A DNA stretch of 64,000 nucleotides from an uncultured candidatus Porisulfidus sp. (GTDB lineage: Bacteria; Pseudomonadota; Gammaproteobacteria; Poriferisulfidales; Poriferisulfidaceae), in contig CBDASZ010000001.1 in NCBI GenBank assembly GCA_965199755.1, positions 128,001 through 192,000 of the forward strand. Direction: 5' to 3'. Positions 8,410-15,374 of this stretch are shown here, piece by piece. The notes under the pieces were generated by a model, which did not search any database, was not told the DNA's origin, and saw only the letters and a program-made list of their open reading frames with translations. Position 1 is the first letter of the stretch; every line of letters begins with the position of its first letter. The translations under genes and the position numbers were made by a program.

Positions 8410-8750
8410 TCAAACCCCTACTTGATGCAGCGCCACTTTCACCGTGTTGGCCACCAGACAAGCCACCGTCATCGGTCCGGTGCCTCCAGGCATCGGCGTG
8501 ATGTATCCGGCCACTTCACGCACCGCGTCGAACTGCACATCCCCTTGAATCTTCCCGTCCACACGGCTTACTCCTACATCAAACACGGCGGCACCCAGTT
8601 TGACATGATCGGCGCTGATGACTCCCGGACTGCCCGTCACCGCCACCAGAATATCGTCGAACAACTGCGATTCATAGCATAGCGACACCAGCGCACAGTC
8701 CGCACGGGAGCGCTCCAGCAAGCGGTCGTAGTAACCTTGGCGTTGCCCAT
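8410..8750 (-). pseudogene. chimeric remnant: 5-formyl-THF cyclo-ligase fragment fused to the folD 3' end
   Basis: [29 protein letters not shown] matches the 16298-16930 product; [10 protein letters not shown]...[15 protein letters not shown] matches the FolD C-terminus; junction ACCAGAATATC at 8645-8655. Confidence 0.85.
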
Positions 8751-8818
8751 GCACAGTGGTGGTGAGGTGGTTGCGGAATTTTTGCATGCGGGTCATGCAA
8801 AAGACTGTTCGCGGTCTA

Positions 8819-9446
8819 TCAAAATCGGCGGTATGTAACAACTCGCGTCTGCTGCGAACCCTTTATGGTTGCCAGATCAGGCACCGTGCGTGTGGCACAT
8901 ACAGCGAAAACCATGCCGTTCCCAGAACCAATCAATAGCGCCGGGGCATGATGCGGGCTATAGCCGCGGCCAGAACGTGCAGATCGATTACTGTTCTGGT
9001 TGCTATGGTTGCGAAGACTGTTTGATTGGATGGCGATGGGATCACGATGTGAGGATTCGTTTGGGGATGACTCGACATGCTTGTTGGGTGCCCCCCGCGC
9101 ACAAGTCGACTGTTGTCCTGGTTGCAAGGGTCCCGAAAACTGCTTTGTTGCTCGGGGAGCTCCAGAGGACCCCCCCCCCCCCCTATATCTGTAGCTGATA
9201 CCTTGTATGTCGTCATTCACAGGCGTTGCTTTCTCGGCATCACCTGAGCTATCGGATCGAGAGTATGCAGACCCGGTACCGTGTTGGTCGCGACTGTCGC
9301 GAACACCGTCCGCGAAGTTGGCATTGTAATCACTATCGCTTTCTGGAGCAGATGCGGCCTTGTCTCCCTGTGAGTCCCAGATCGGGGGCTGACCTTGTGG
9401 CAAGCAGTCCCCATCCGATTTGAGTGCTGTTTGAGACATAGACTGC
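8819..9446 (-). repeat. array of five homologous TRD cassettes in staggered frames (9446-9333, 9339-9217, 9170-9042, 9048-8932, 8941-8819)
   Basis: Manual translation; shared pattern hhh-x(5-7)-[FW][AG]xhAT[RN][ST]xx[DG]L-x(6-9)-[RQ]hhxx[RK]. Confidence 0.88.
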
Positions 9447-12400
9447 CCCCCCCCCCCTGTTTCATTTCCACGAGGGAATAGCGCAGCAGCCGTTTTGCCT
9501 GCGGACAAGATACGCCAATCCTCATACAGCCAGATTTTTACAAATGGCCGGTATAACACCTCCCTGATATTAGCTTCATCAAAAGTAAGCCTGATTTGTT
9601 TGCGCAACGTTTTCTTAAGGGCATCCGTCCACTTGATTGATTTGATATTTTGAGTGCTTGTCAACTCATCAAGAGCTTGCTGGTTGTCTGGTTTCTGCAA
9701 GATGTCCAGTGTTTTGTTGTATGTGTTAATGAGTGCTTGGGCCTTATTAGCACACTCTTCCCTCGACCAACTGTAGACATAAGTGTCTAAGTTTGTCTTG
9801 ATGCCAGCAACACTGCTAGTAGCGACCGAAGCACTGGCGTTAGTAAGTTTCGCTCTTGTGTTTTTCTGACACAATGGCATCAATGAATTAAATTCCGGAT
9901 TGCCAAGATTAATCCAGGCATGATCTGGAGTCACCGGTATTGTCTCGAATTGTTCGTGGTAAACGTCACCGAGATCCTCTAGCCACTTAAACTTTTGCTC
10001 TAGACTCCGGGAGTCTGGGACCATCGCAATACGCAATGTTGCCGGTTTTTTAATATCCTTCTTCGGATCGTAAACCAAGAAAGTTATCTGGACCCCATTT
10101 CGGGAAGCGCTACCAAAAACCTTATCCCCCTCAAGTTCCCATTCGCTACCACTCTTGTAAGCGTTCCCCCGCAAATTTGCAACATATATGTCCGTGAATT
10201 CGTCTCGCAGAACCTTTCTCATGCCTGCCAGCGAGGTGGCATCCGACAGAGAGTTTGGCGTAACCATTGCCAAAATTCGCGGCCCCGAGGTGACACCTTC
10301 CTGTCCCTGCTTCAGTATCCGGTCGGAGCCCCAGCGCAGTGCCTTGACATATAAGTTGCCACCTGCGTTCCCGCCGGGTGCCCGGCCAGTCAGCTGAGTG
10401 TGTTCTTGAACATAAGTCTGGTGCACCCGCTTGGCGATATCCTGATAGAGAATGTTCGATGCTTTCTCTGATGCGTCATCCTTGCCACTGGACCATGGCG
10501 GGTTCGTCACCAGAACCTCAATATCGGCATCACCTTGGCGCCGTACCCGCTTGTAGTTGTCCTCAAGGTCGTCTGAGTCCAGATTTAGTCGAGCACTTGA
10601 ACTTCCCGGATCAAGTAGAAGCGTGTCAACCAAACTTAAGGACTCGAACGGCTCGTAAGACAACTTGGAGGGGTCTGCCACGCCGGCTTCCTCAACTTGG
10701 CGCTGATGCTTCGTGGCTTCGATGTTCAGGTTTGCAATGTAGTAGGGGAGGAGGAGAAGTTCATTGCCGAAAAACTCCCGCCGGTATTTTCGTGAAAGGT
10801 CAGGCTCGCGAATAAGGTAATTGCCATCGTTATCCCGGAGATTAAGAAGCCGTGCGAGGAATGTCCCTGTGCCAGCGAAGGGTTCCAAAATACGAACATT
10901 CTTGTCAGAAATGCTTTTCCCAAATTCCTTCTGACAAATAGCCTCAATGGAATGTAGCACGAAATCCACAATTTCCACAGGCGTGTATGCAATGCCCATA
11001 GATTTCACTTGACCCGGTATTGCTTGCCGGAAAAAGCTTTCATAGATCTGGCGCAAGATGTCAAGTTTTTTCGCATCACGATCTTGGATTTTCTCCAAAT
11101 TTCGCTCACATCGCTGATCTTCATCAACCAGTTCATCGGCGTGTAAAGCAGTCCGCATCATTTGATACGGGCGCTCCAGTGGTTCGAGTTCAGCCCGGTA
11201 TTCCATTCCCTCAACCTCAAACGCATCCAGTACCTTCTGAATCGCAGCTGACACGGGATTGTCATCGGCAAAATGAGACTGCGAAAAGAACTCATCAAAG
11301 ACTGGTAGCGTGACGATGTGGTGCGCCAGCATGCTGACCGCCATAGTCCGATTGATATTCGGACTGACTGCCTTTTGGAGGTCCACCAAGAACCCATTGA
11401 AGTGCTCTTCAACGGCCGAATTATTATCAACGTGGGCATTGATTTTGGTTTCAATCTTGTCTGAGATTTCAGCCGCGTGCTTGCCCCACTGCAGATACAT
11501 GTGACGGTCGCCACATTCTTCAATTACGAGTGACCCGAATTTCTCTGCTATTGCTTGCCTAAACTTTTCTGGGTCCGCATAGATTGTGTCCTTGAGGTCG
11601 TCACGGACAGAGTCGTCCCTTTTGAGCGGCGGAAGTAATTTGAACGTTACTGGCAATGCACCAGCTTCAATTTCATAGTTTAAACGTTCGTCGTGTGAGC
11701 GCAATGCTCGAATGATTTCGTAGACAGGCTCGAAAGCACTTTTCCTCAGTGTTTTCTCAGCAGCGGCCTTCACATCCCCCCAATCCCAGCTCATCTGAAG
11801 CTGAAGCACTACTGGAATGATCACATAGCCTATCTTCTTATGTGGCGCTCGGCGCATGACCCGGCCCACTGCTTGCGTCACATCAATAGGAGACCGTCTT
11901 GTTTGGAGAAAAACAACCGCATCCAGAGAAGGAACGTCAACTCCCTCAGTGAGTACTCGGACATTTGTCAGAAGTTCGCATACATTTCCCGCAGTGTCTT
12001 TGTGAACTTGCCGCAACCTGTCAAGTTGCGCATCACGTTCAAACGCTGGTGTCTTTGCATCCAGATGATTTACCGACAGTTCCAGTAACTCTGTTTGACC
12101 GTCAGATGGCTCTTCGTCCGAGGCGGAGTACCACTTGATCACGTCGTTCCAAACTTTCTGAATTCTTTTGCTTTCTTTCACACGTGATGCAAATACCAGG
12201 GCAGAGCGGCAGGGTTCCCCATACTGGTCAAGGTTGATCCCACCAATTGGAAGTTCCGGATGTTGCCCCTTTGAGAGTGGGCTAGCTAGCGCATCCCAGC
12301 AACCAGCAAGTTTGATGATGGTTTCGGAGTCAATTTGTTCTCCACCTACATCTATCTCTCGGCCTGCGACTTCACGCTCAAAATCATCCTGTGTGCCACC

Positions 12401-13741
12401 AATGATTACGATCTCGTAGTCGCTCAAATAACCCTCTTTGATAGCATGAGCGAAACTCATCCGATATGCCTCATCGCCGTATGTTTCGACATCGTCCATA
12501 GAATAACTCTGTCCATCAAAATTGCGTTGCTCGAGTTTTTTTCGATGAGTGGGAGTAAACACCCTCGGAGTTGCCGTCATATAGATACGCTTCCTCGCAG
12601 GTAAATACGTGTCGGAATGCAACAAAAGAAAAGGTGATGTGTTTTCGATCTCACTGGCATGCGGCAGGCTGGAAATTTCCTTGTCTGGGTGTTTGAGCTT
12701 CTTCTTTTTCTGCTTGTTATCTTCAATTCCTGTAGTTCGGTGCGCCTCATCAGCGATGATCAGGTCAAGAGTGGCTTTCTTCCCATCGCGTTCAAGCAAA
12801 GATAATGCGAGCGCAAGAACATCTGATGACTGATAAGTACAAAATACGACTCTCATGGCCCCACCTGGCACAGGCTTGGACAACCTTTCCGCCAACTTCT
12901 TTGGCCGGGTCGTGACGGGGATAGGCATTTCAATTACTGATGTCCCATCATCCCTGCCGACCGTTTTGTCGGAACACACCGCAATGTACTCAATAGGTAC
13001 ATCGCGATCGCGATGGCGAGACCACTCTTTTATGGTCTGCCGAACGAGAGCAAGTGACGGCACCAGATATGCAATGGTCTTGCCGGATCCAAACAATTTC
13101 TCAGCAGTACGCAAAGCAACGAAGGACTTCCCGGTGCCGCACGGCAATATCAGTTTGGTGCGGTCTTTTCCTTCAAGCTCCGCTTGAATGCCCTTAATTG
13201 CCTCTCTTTGAAAGTCGTGTAGTTCATGTCGTTTTGTAACAAAGTGTGATGGCCGGACATCAAATTGTTCAAGTGCACCTACAAGACTCTCCCGATCATC
13301 AAACCAGCCAGCAATATCTTGAGTCGTAATCACTTGACATTCAGGGTTTGCATTTTCGAGTTGCGCCTGTACGTTTGAGGTGAGAGAGCGGGTTGTGACT
13401 ATCAAGCGCAGTTTGAATTTCTCGGACTCGCTGGCACCCAGAAAGGAATCAACTTCAGCTTTTCTTACTGTCGAACTGCCGTACTTCGCTTGGACCGCAA
13501 CTAAGCCTCCGCCGTAAGTTTCCGTCTGTTTGGCAACAATGTCTACGCCAATATCAATCCGGCCCCGGTAATCAACGTTGTCAGGCCAGTCCCTCCAGAG
13601 CCAAACGTTCTCGAACCTGTCACGGCCCCAGTCACCAGGGTGTTTCGTAAAGACCTGATGAATGAACTGTTCAAACGTTCGTCCTTGTTGCTGGCGCGAA
13701 CCTTGAAAGTAATTGTCGAAAATTTCTTCGATGCTTTCCAT
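8819..13741 (-). CDS. Type ISP-like restriction-modification enzyme (nuclease-SF2 helicase-N6-adenine MTase-partial TRD) with a variable C-terminus
   Basis: Mrr-like DIGVDIV...VQAK; Walker [24 protein letters not shown]; MTase EPFAGTGTF and NPPW; TRD entry [13 protein letters not shown]; the frame crosses two poly-G tracts. Confidence 0.9.
9170..9183 (-). repeat. homopolymer tract B (G14 on the coding strand)
   Basis: C14 on the + strand, directly before cassette 3. Confidence 0.95.
9446..9457 (-). repeat. homopolymer tract A (G12 on the coding strand)
   Basis: C12 on the + strand, immediately after ...FPRGNET of the core enzyme. Confidence 0.95.
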
Positions 13742-13781
13742 ATTACTAACGCTGGGTGATTGTTAAAAAGGATTCCCAAAC

Positions 13782-14500
13782 CTATGAGTCAAATAAAGAC
13801 CCCGAGTCAGTTGAGACTTCCGATAAAGGTTCAGAGGGCAGTGCCGGCGGCAATGAGCGGATGATTCGGGTCGACTCGATACCAATATAAATGAGGCGGC
13901 GCAAGTGATTGATCAATTCGACAGAGTTATCTGCCCACGCATGCCATGTATTTGGATCGTCACGTATGCCAGAGCGTTTATCAAGCTTCTCACGGAGCGA
14001 GCCAACGGCCCACTCAAGTGGCGACCTGCCAGAGATCTGGTACTCATGCGCCTCAGGAGGGATATCGACTAGTCTGCAATGGTCATTGACGTGAAGAACG
14101 GACCTGTCTTCCTGCTTTGTTTCAGGGTCCTTGCCAAACCGCATCTGCTTGACAATCCGGTACCTGAGATTCTCATCGACACTCTCGTCAACGATACACT
14201 TGACATCAGCCAGAGGAGCTTGCTCGTAGTCGGCGTGCAACTCGAAAAGCTCCGCGCCTGCTTTACAAAATTTCTGAAAGGCCTCAACCCCACCTGGGAC
14301 GAGCGGGATGGATGGCAGATTCTTCTGTAGATCATTCTTGAACTCACGCCGCCAGTCGGGCGCGTGCATAACACCGTAAATGTAATCCCAAACGTCGTCT
14401 TTGGTTATATCCTCTGATTGATAGACTTTCTGAAACTGTGCCAGCGACCAATCGGACACATTATCTGTTTCATATGGAGGGGGGGGGGGGGGGCAAGCAT
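13782..14500 (-). CDS. detached C-terminal portion of the Type ISP enzyme; ATG 14500 is out of frame as assembled, alternative GTG start at 14459
   Basis: YETDNVSDWSLAQFQKVY...ITKDDVWDYIYGVMHAPDWRREFKNDLQKNLPSIPL...IPPEAHEYQISGRSPLEW...SGIRDDPN is the typical Type ISP C-terminal region. Confidence 0.85.
14479..14493 (-). repeat. homopolymer tract C (C15 on the coding strand), starting at the 8th nt of the candidate ATG 14500 reading frame
   Basis: G15 on the + strand; ATG CTT G(C)n T CCA TAT GAA is in frame only for n=13 or 16. Confidence 0.9.
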
Positions 14501-14513
14501 GGGAATCCCGGTG

Positions 14514-15374
14514 CTAATTGCCCGAGTTATGTAGTGCCGCCTTCACAGTATTCGCCATCAAGCAGGCAACTGTCATGGGCCCGGTGCCGCCTGGCATCGG
14601 CGTGATATAGTCAACCACTTCGTGCACTAAATCAAATTGAATATCTCCTCGTATTATGCCATCCACACGCGAGACCCCCACATCAAAGACGGCGGCACCC
14701 GGTTTAACGTGATCGGCACTAATGATCCCGGGACTTCCGGCAGCTGCTACCAGAATATCCGCCTCCCGCGTCAACTGCATCAGGTCCCGTGTGCGCGAAT
14801 GCGCCAGTGTTACCGTCGCATCCACGCCTCGCTCAGCCAACATCATTGCCATTGGCACGCCGACCAGCCGGGAGCGACCCAGTACAACTGCACGTGCGCC
14901 CTCGGTCTCAATTTTGTAATGGTTAATCAGTTCAATCACACCCGACGGCGTGCAGGGGCGCAGGCCTGGCAAGCCAACCGACAAGCGGCCTAGGTTGATT
15001 TCAGTCAGACCATCGACATCCTTGTGCGGTGGAATTGCGTGTAGAACAGGCCCTGCGTCCAAGTGCGATGGCAACGGCATCTGCACCAGAATTCCGTGCA
15101 CGGTCGAATCCTGCGCCAGAATGTGAATCGCTTCAATCAGATCTTCTTGCTTGGTGTCTGAGGGAAGCGCCAGATGACGGGACAGGATGCCTACTTCGCC
15201 GGCTTCCGCGATCTTCCGTGAGATGTACAACTGGCTGGCCGGATCGTCACCGACCAACACCGTGGCTAGTGTGATGGGAGGAAGGCCGCGAATTTGCTCA
15301 CGCAGCCGACCGCACAAAGCATGCGCGACGGCAGTGCCGTCGATAATCTTCCCGGAATGTAAGGGCTCACTCAA
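14514..15374 (-). CDS. folD: methylene-THF dehydrogenase/cyclohydrolase
   Basis: [46 protein letters not shown]. Confidence 0.96.
   Translation of the reverse strand: MSEPLHSGKIIDGTAVAHALCGRLREQIRGLPPITLATVLVGDDPASQLYISRKIAEAGEVGILSRHLALPSDTKQEDLIEAIHILAQDSTVHGILVQMPLPSHLDAGPVLHAIPPHKDVDGLTEINLGRLSVGLPGLRPCTPSGVIELINHYKIETEGARAVVLGRSRLVGVPMAMMLAERGVDATVTLAHSRTRDLMQLTREADILVAAAGSPGIISADHVKPGAAVFDVGVSRVDGIIRGDIQFDLVHEVVDYITPMPGGTGPMTVACLMANTVKAALHNSGN

Follow-up and report, generated by a model that had tools for sequence, protein, structure and literature searches.

The 64,000-nucleotide stretch analysed here (the window; positions 128,001–192,000 of contig CBDASZ010000001.1, assembly GCA_965199755.1) carries a restriction–modification (R-M) locus that we read, with fair though not full confidence, as a horizontally acquired, split Type ISP system in which DNA repeats switch one DNA-reading loop. 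According to this reading, replication slippage at two guanine tracts, tract A (G12) and tract B (G14), would change the reading frame at the 3′ end of the large gene, and the polypeptide would end with exactly one of five alternative cassettes. Each cassette would supply the β-hairpin, Loop VI, and the following strand of the target recognition domain (TRD), and a separately made protein, TRD-C, comprising conserved helices and the ‘guide’ subdomain, would complete the TRD in trans. The length of a third tract, tract C, would set which TRD-C start codon, if any, is in frame, gating the system on or off. One gene would thereby probably change its recognized DNA sequence without a recombinase. 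All coordinates of this locus are window positions, all of its features lie on the minus strand, and tract lengths are those of the assembly.

The Type ISP core gene (9458..13741), defined by Pfam and translation, encodes 1418 amino acids (aa) and ends in ...LFPRGNET. It runs directly into tract A (9446..9457), which sequence and three-frame translation identify as the first three-way frame selector: a length of 3n+1 selects cassette C1 (9333..9446, stop codon at 9335–9333), 3n+2 selects C2 (9217..9339, stop codon at 9219–9217), and 3n leads on to tract B (9170..9183), the second three-way selector. There, lengths of 3n, 3n+1, and 3n+2 select C3 (9042..9170), C4 (8932..9048), and C5 (8819..8941), respectively, as read from three-frame translation. 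The assembled state is the last of these, a single open reading frame (ORF; 13741..8819, 1640 aa) with C5 at its end. C1 and C2 occupy the two non-core frames, and C3, C4, and C5 lie in three different frames; the only runs of at least eight G or C in the window are tracts A and B and a 15-base run at 14479–14493. An earlier note on this DNA, made from the letters alone, had described the same five peptides, stops, and tracts, which the minus-strand sequence and its three-frame translation reproduced, and the same decoder rule, which hand codon stepping confirmed. Its further claim that no state is a dead end holds for the window, where every needed frame of the large gene is open, and fails for the wider family, in which 33 of 73 arrays end outside a recognized cassette. 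Chance is excluded as the source of this arrangement because a profile of the five peptides finds another 300 cassettes, spread over 75 of the 80 related loci, in the same staggered layout. The 3′ end of the large gene is a decoder that ends the chain in one of five cassettes of about 40 residues.

The recurrence of the layout in independently assembled loci also disposes of a view that might otherwise suggest itself, that the locus is a decaying, frameshifted pseudogene or a homopolymer artefact of assembly. Long-read assemblies do miscall homopolymer lengths, and this is a foreign island in a small genome (1.39 Mb) with a TRD-C that has no in-frame ATG or TTG as assembled. However, the 1418-aa core and the 225-aa TRD-C are both intact, and silent cassettes are conserved in their own frames only, as detailed below. 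We reject this explanation as already contradicted and scarcely credible.

In the large protein, Pfam places Mrr_cat_2 at residues 41–144, ResIII at 172–393, Helicase_C at 554–631, ISP_coupler at 751–865, N6_Mtase at 893–1093, and Type_ISP_C at 1309–1416, and the translation contains the motifs PCGTGKS, DEAH, and NPPW. The domain order, i.e., Mrr nuclease, superfamily 2 (SF2) helicase-like ATPase, coupler, gamma-class N6-adenine methyltransferase (MTase), and TRD, is that of Type ISP enzymes, which methylate one strand of an asymmetric target and cleave after translocation and collision. Of the TRD, the core holds the opening part, which includes Loops IV and V, and its Type_ISP_C match covers only profile positions 5–101 of 342. 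TRD-C (P0002; 13782..14459), a 225-aa product counted from GTG 14459, matches positions 170–340 of the same profile (E = 8.1e-44). As the 1.39-Mb genome has no other Type_ISP_C match, the enzyme is split, and the gap between profile positions 101 and 170 is the place filled by the cassettes. TRD-C maps to LlaGI 1395–1568, i.e., the conserved helices of the TRD core (1395–1428) plus the ‘guide’ subdomain. Type ISP enzymes are defined as single polypeptides; here, the remainder of the TRD sits in a separate upstream gene, and every cassette ends in a stop codon. Judged by homology, the enzyme is of Type ISP but a two-chain variant. The demands of the switch itself explain the split: a cassette must end in a stop codon, so the rest of the TRD cannot continue in the same chain, and frameshifting can exchange an internal loop of a domain only when the chain stops just after that loop. 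We infer that TRD-C assembles with the core and completes the TRD in trans. The split recurs in 110 stand-alone TRD-C homologues (155–366 aa), which contain Type_ISP_C only and most of which have their own Met and a short variable leader.

The cassettes correspond to the segment that is missing between the two chains. Pfam Type_ISP_C runs through a first cassette that is naturally in frame behind a short linker to profile position 150–152 in six of seven related loci, and ends at position 114 in the seventh in-frame product. Unsplit Type ISP enzymes of the same genus (1634–1635 aa) have the layout YRPF...IFPDSELPNR-AIAVTGKGGRSGFSVLMVDALPNLHTVDTGQCFPFWLY-variable linker-...ITKEDIFHYIYGLLHS; the cassettes align on AIAVTGKGGRSGFSVLMVDALPNLHTVDTGQCFPFWLY of the unsplit same-genus enzyme (alignment A2), and TRD-C begins at the end of the variable linker. 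HMMER alignment to 5FFJ and 4XQK equates the AIAVTGKGGRSGFSVLMVDALPNLHTVDTGQCFPFWLY segment with approximately LlaGI 1342–1384 and LlaBIII 1334–1374, in a numbering checked against the residues named in PMC4872093 (LlaGI H1368, G1372, and Q1373; LlaBIII D1318, R1319, Y1321, and N1360). Thus, the assignment of the cassettes to the TRD by the earlier note is borne out, and, by way of the unsplit relative, its suggested alignment to the LlaGI and LlaBIII TRDs lands on the β-hairpin (1347–1358, LlaGI numbering) and Loop VI (1365–1374), which in the cassette are followed by the strand NLPRFTYE. As stated in the part of the structural report drawn on here (PMC4872093), Loop VI reads target position +3, through H1368, G1372, and Q1373 in LlaGI and N1360 in LlaBIII, and the ‘guide’ subdomain does not read bases. 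The position that follows PDL is the counterpart of H1368 and holds G, H, C, H, and A in C1 to C5, respectively, and the loops that follow vary in sequence and length; Loop VI of the cassettes is about three residues longer than in the unsplit relatives. By this correspondence, the cassettes would confer different recognition sequences.

Cassettes might instead switch around a constant recognition sequence, either varying a surface so as to evade phage anti-restriction proteins or tuning activity and ON/OFF state. The number of loop types, at least six or seven and so more than the four bases, would suit such a role, as would the 33 of 73 arrays that appear OFF as assembled. Yet the swapped segment is the loop whose base-specific contacts at +3 are seen in both solved Type ISP complexes, cassette types differ at the counterpart of the base-reading H1368/N1360, and in the Helicobacter pylori analogue discussed below the swap does change the motif. 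We therefore consider constant recognition decidedly improbable and retain a change of specificity as the preferred reading.

A further tract precedes TRD-C. Tract C (C15 on the coding strand, 14479..14493) lies between ATG 14500/TTG 14496 and the TRD-C frame; by hand count, a length of 1 mod 3 brings ATG 14500 into frame and 2 mod 3 brings in TTG 14496. At the assembled length of 15, neither is in frame, and what is left is GTG 14459, before which no ribosome-binding site is obvious. P0004, a TRD-C of another assembly that shares 97% identity with that of the window, starts with MPPPPPYETDNV, as expected if a C11 tract were read from the TTG. Tract C is probably a third layer of the switch, an ON/OFF control for the whole system.

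One genome per species was scanned for relatives, which gave 133 confirmed stretches, and the best 80 loci were kept. Their titles are mostly Acidimicrobiia or sponge-symbiont candidate taxa, with single records from Dehalococcoidia, Caldilineaceae, Thermoanaerobaculia, and the OMG-group. The 300 additional cassettes found with the five-cassette profile form 80 arrays of one to seven cassettes, and the layout of tract plus staggered cassettes, for which the earlier note had proposed a search of relatives, is present in 75 of the 80 loci. The repeat-plus-cassette design is a widespread family and not unique to the window. Layout statistics were taken over 81 arrays, the window’s included, with arrays and pairs related to each other. 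At least one frame-shifting repeat occurs in 76 of the 81 arrays. Of the 113 blocks that hold at least two cassettes, 110 have a different frame for every cassette, and the 155 steps between neighbors comprise 144 of −1 frame, 11 of +1, and none in the same frame. For 288 of 294 cassettes, the frame is open back to the switch, and at least one open pass-through frame leads to the next switch in 67 of 68 internal blocks (exactly one in 62), compared with control rates for an open frame of 0.25 per antisense frame and 0.13 per shuffled frame. Staggered frames and pass-through both show that the decoder logic is conserved across the family. The homopolymer tracts of the family span G12–G27, and loci that lack a homopolymer have (GA)n, (CA)n, tetramers (GGAC, GTCC, GAAC), a pentamer, or a heptamer between ...LFP... 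and the array. Different repeat chemistries thus have the same frame consequence, which argues that frame choice is the selected function.

These regularities are also what separates a frame switch from a store of silent donors, in which tandem cassettes would feed an expressed slot by recombination or gene conversion, as in pilS/pilE, and the repeats would be incidental. Tandem homologous cassettes could in principle recombine, and their number and order do vary between loci. Recombination, however, gives no reason for one-frame offsets, for a stop in each cassette, for open pass-through frames, or for a repeat in front of nearly every array; moreover, no recombinase gene was found among ORFs of at least 30 aa in the 5.9-kb island, where the Pfam scan covered the two Type ISP genes and flanking frames only. 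We reject the donor explanation as very unlikely.

Selection on the cassettes was estimated as the ratio of nonsynonymous to synonymous substitution rates (dN/dS) over the 13 codons before the PDL anchor, using 1428 non-independent cassette pairs from different loci with 70–97% DNA identity. The ratio is 0.29 in the cassettes’ own frame vs 0.92 and 2.2 in the shifted frames, and 0.288 for the 1068 pairs that consist of two cassettes silent in the assembly. Purifying selection acts on silent cassettes, and in their own frames only. Loops were sorted into types under labels of our own, and the 305 cassettes typed comprise 70 of type D, 64 of C, 52 of A, 48 of M, 46 of T, nine of K, and 16 others or untyped. 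The five cassettes of the window belong to five types, in order T-like, D, C, a rare ‘GIAxR’-like type, and A; the rare type of C4 is also found in L101, L103, P0114, and P0116. Arrays seldom carry one loop type twice: such repetition is seen in 17 of 74 arrays, vs 47.8 expected (2000 shuffles, minimum 36).

Related genes sit in different switch states. P0114 and P0116, which share 87.5% and 85.5% identity with the window's core, get past tract A like the window and end in a C4-like cassette; both are encoded with P0004 on one 2.6-Mb contig. P0115 (79.8% identical) has a single tract and a C5-like cassette at its end. The earlier note had named invariant tract lengths in relatives as an outcome that would speak against the switch; instead, C11 faces C15 at TRD-C, and orthologous repeats in the locus pairs of highest similarity have different lengths and even different units. 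Exact-pattern scans of metagenome contigs, with the tract A flanks and a TRD-C coding stretch as patterns, gave no match.

Slippage could also act at the level of expression, by RNA polymerase or ribosome, such that each cell makes a mixture of isoforms and addresses a set of related targets simultaneously. Transcriptional slippage is a known effect of long homopolymers, and the G12–G27 tracts favor it; in addition, an isoform mixture would avoid the risk of self-restriction that follows a heritable change of specificity. By contrast, many loci have repeats with units of two, four, five, or seven nucleotides at this site, which are classic targets of DNA slippage and ill suited to polymerase slippage, and the repeat lengths and states of related loci differ in the DNA itself. 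Expression-level slippage seems to us unlikely as the main explanation, and the two processes are not mutually exclusive. Replication slippage, the process that we favor, presumably occurs at useful rates in the host organism.

Gene order varies in the family. Among 81 TRD-C matches, 37 follow the core-plus-array, 23 precede the core as in the window, 11 are divergent, nine have no core within the retrieved locus, and one is of another kind; in 72 of the 81 cases, TRD-C adjoins the core gene, in three different gene orders. As assembled, 40 of the 73 arrays with an upstream core end terminate at the stop of a cassette (the first through the fifth), and a further eight arrays have no YRPF motif upstream. 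In L054, which has the order core, array, TRD-C, the stop of the last cassette ends at 9939 and the TRD-C ATG is at 9941 (9937–9943), a spacing that suggests translational coupling of TRD-C to the last-cassette frame. L072 and L088 have an array and TRD-C with no recognizable core within 10 kb; they could be leftovers of a full system or work with a core from another locus. Some genomes hold more than one split system: L036, L083, L087, and the P0114/P0116 contig have two or three copies, in tandem or close by, each with an array of its own.

G/C runs are found at other positions as well. In many related loci, they lie inside the core gene, at the break of the tblastn match (L033, L037, L039, L040, L046, L059, L061, L068, L081, and others), some just upstream of the core start (e.g., L049, L056, L057, L066, L073, L074, and L091), and some at the 5′ end of TRD-C (eight of 81 genes), so that ON/OFF layers are common in the family. 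In several relatives (L029, L033, L059, L082, L099, L034, and L083), the first G tract falls inside Loop VI of an extra in-frame ‘cassette 0’ (...PDLNS(V/I)GPGR-GGGG...); a strict regular-expression search recovered this form in four of 123 runs, two of them false. The homopolymer may have grown out of Loop VI glycine codons, in which case an in-frame change of length would alter the loop too.

For the family as a whole, we give roughly even weight to a fuller picture. Two-chain Type ISP enzymes would have spread by horizontal gene transfer, mainly among sponge symbionts, with nested repeats picking among up to seven Loop VI modules, each specifying a different base at +3 (perhaps +2). The TRD would have been split for the sake of the switchable loop, ON/OFF tracts at TRD-C and in the core would multiply the number of states, and the cassette types would amount to a portable recognition code.

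Several observations weigh against the switch as we read it, for the window or for the family. The tract variation observed is that between related loci. The five-cassette profile had no significant match in 16 unsplit enzymes (best E = 0.079), with weak matches falling on the expected segment in five of the nine rows listed, and the specificity reading leans on two solved enzymes that are only ~25% identical in the cassette region. Modeling of the L054 TRD-N-plus-cassette product by itself with AlphaFold2 (alignment A2, 18 rows) reached a mean predicted local distance difference test (pLDDT) score of 64.3, with ~30 in the cassette (280–330), and says nothing either way. In the window, TRD-C lacks a good in-frame start at C15, so that the system may be off or the tract miscalled, and C5 is reached only via ~180 residues of out-of-frame read-through that the enzyme would have to tolerate as a linker; in translation, the read-through linkers, of about 35 aa for C2 and about 90–180 aa for C3–C5, are hydrophilic and of low complexity and are thus plausibly tolerated as loops. 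In the family, the 33 arrays that finish elsewhere than at a cassette stop may represent OFF states, homopolymer miscalls in long-read metagenome-assembled genomes, or decay, and the array and pair counts, being non-independent, overstate the independent support.

The locus occupies an island of ~5.9 kb (about 8656–14513) with a GC content of 0.48–0.52 vs 0.58–0.62 outside. Directly upstream of the island lies a complete folD (14514..15374; Pfam THF_DHG_CYH and THF_DHG_CYH_C), and at its other end a folD 3′ remnant (8413..8655) consisting of the last 80 codons (THF_DHG_CYH_C 81–158), with 65 of 80 residues identical by BLASTP and a supporting DNA alignment. A complete folD and a duplicated 80-codon end on either side of the island indicate insertion into the 3′ end of folD with a replacement end; no integrase gene was recognized within the island. 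Type_ISP_C is present in five of 15 genomes of the same genus, always in unsplit enzymes. In a 401-genome phylum sample, eight genomes, the window’s own included, have a TRD-C match at E = 1e-20 or better; the seven others do not exceed 40% identity and are embedded in open frames of 544–1677 aa; one of these matches contains two stops. Neither the 15 same-genus genomes nor the phylum sample yielded a split relative. We read the Type ISP locus as a horizontally acquired, foreign low-GC island.

The whole genome has nine G/C runs of 11–16 bases, two of eight, and none of 9–10, and three of the nine are in the Type ISP locus. G12, G14, and C15 share one feature of simple sequence repeat (SSR) contingency loci, a repeat unit that is not a multiple of three, located in a frame or at its start. 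Three of the other runs lie in or beside genes of note. At G000 C1:849508-853709 (L105), a second large defense-type gene (1181-aa open frame; ResIII, Helicase_C, and N6_Mtase) carries G13 on the coding strand near its 3′ end and a further 234-aa open frame behind it, and this may be another C-terminal frame switch. At G000 C2:131425-132300 (L106), a D12-class (Dam-like) N6-adenine MTase carries G16 about 45 codons into its frame and resembles an orphan or Type II MTase under phase-variable ON/OFF control. At G000 C2:6379-10406 (L108), G11 lies just upstream of the frame of a 1160-aa Calx-beta/fn3/Ig-like surface protein, which may be a phase-variable adhesin.

Among known systems, the nearest is found in the H. 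pylori Type IIG enzymes JHP1272 (Hpy99XIV) and HP1353–HP1354 (HpyAXVI), in which a homopolymer toggles between two states; these enzymes have two homopolymer switches (Krebes et al. 2014, PMC3936762). In the portion of that report used here, as in the window, a homopolymer near the 3′ end decides the C-terminal piece. In H. pylori, the alternative piece resembles part of the TRD by homology and alters which bases are recognized beside the methylated adenine, as the cassettes may here, and a separate tract gives ON/OFF control, as tract C may here; the alternative C-terminal segments of the window are likewise homologous to part of a TRD. The same portion describes two states and one extra domain on a complete TRD, in contrast to the five states of the window (up to seven cassettes in relatives) and its staggered array behind nested selectors; it describes no split TRD completed in trans, and the class is Type IIG and not Type ISP. 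LlaGI and LlaBIII (5FFJ and 4XQK; Kulkarni et al. 2016, PMC4872093) share the domain order and TRD elements of the window’s enzyme, but in the portion of their structural report used here they are single polypeptides with one fixed TRD, whereas the TRD of the window is cut after the strand that follows Loop VI and has five copies of that loop. SSR phasevarions and hsdS shufflons (SpnD39III) resemble the proposed switch in changing methylation and restriction reversibly and stochastically through hypermutable DNA; NgoAV hsdS also belongs to this phase-variable group. The shufflons also reach several specificities but, in the accounts drawn on, need a site-specific recombinase and inverted hsdS copies; the SSR-controlled Type I and Type III systems in the accounts drawn on are ON/OFF or give truncated forms, in contrast to several states from repeats alone. 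In the open-access literature (supplements aside), we found no description of nested repeat selectors with staggered cassettes or of a two-chain Type ISP enzyme.

To our knowledge, multi-state switching of specificity has been thought to need recombinases; SSRs that phase-vary R-M systems are known to turn them ON or OFF and, in a single case, to toggle between two specificities. The locus described here and its ~75 relatives offer a route to five to seven states from repeats alone, and with it a design principle: an internal recognition loop can be made switchable by frameshift if the domain is cut right after the loop and a second protein provides the remainder in trans. If the six or seven conserved loop types were matched to motifs, they would extend the partial recognition code of Type ISP enzymes and would give ready-made swap modules for engineering their specificity. 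Gene callers label these loci ‘DEAD/DEAH box helicase’ plus ‘hypothetical protein’ and miss the system. The locus and its relatives point to intense, fast-changing phage defense or epigenetic heterogeneity in uncultured sponge-associated bacteria.

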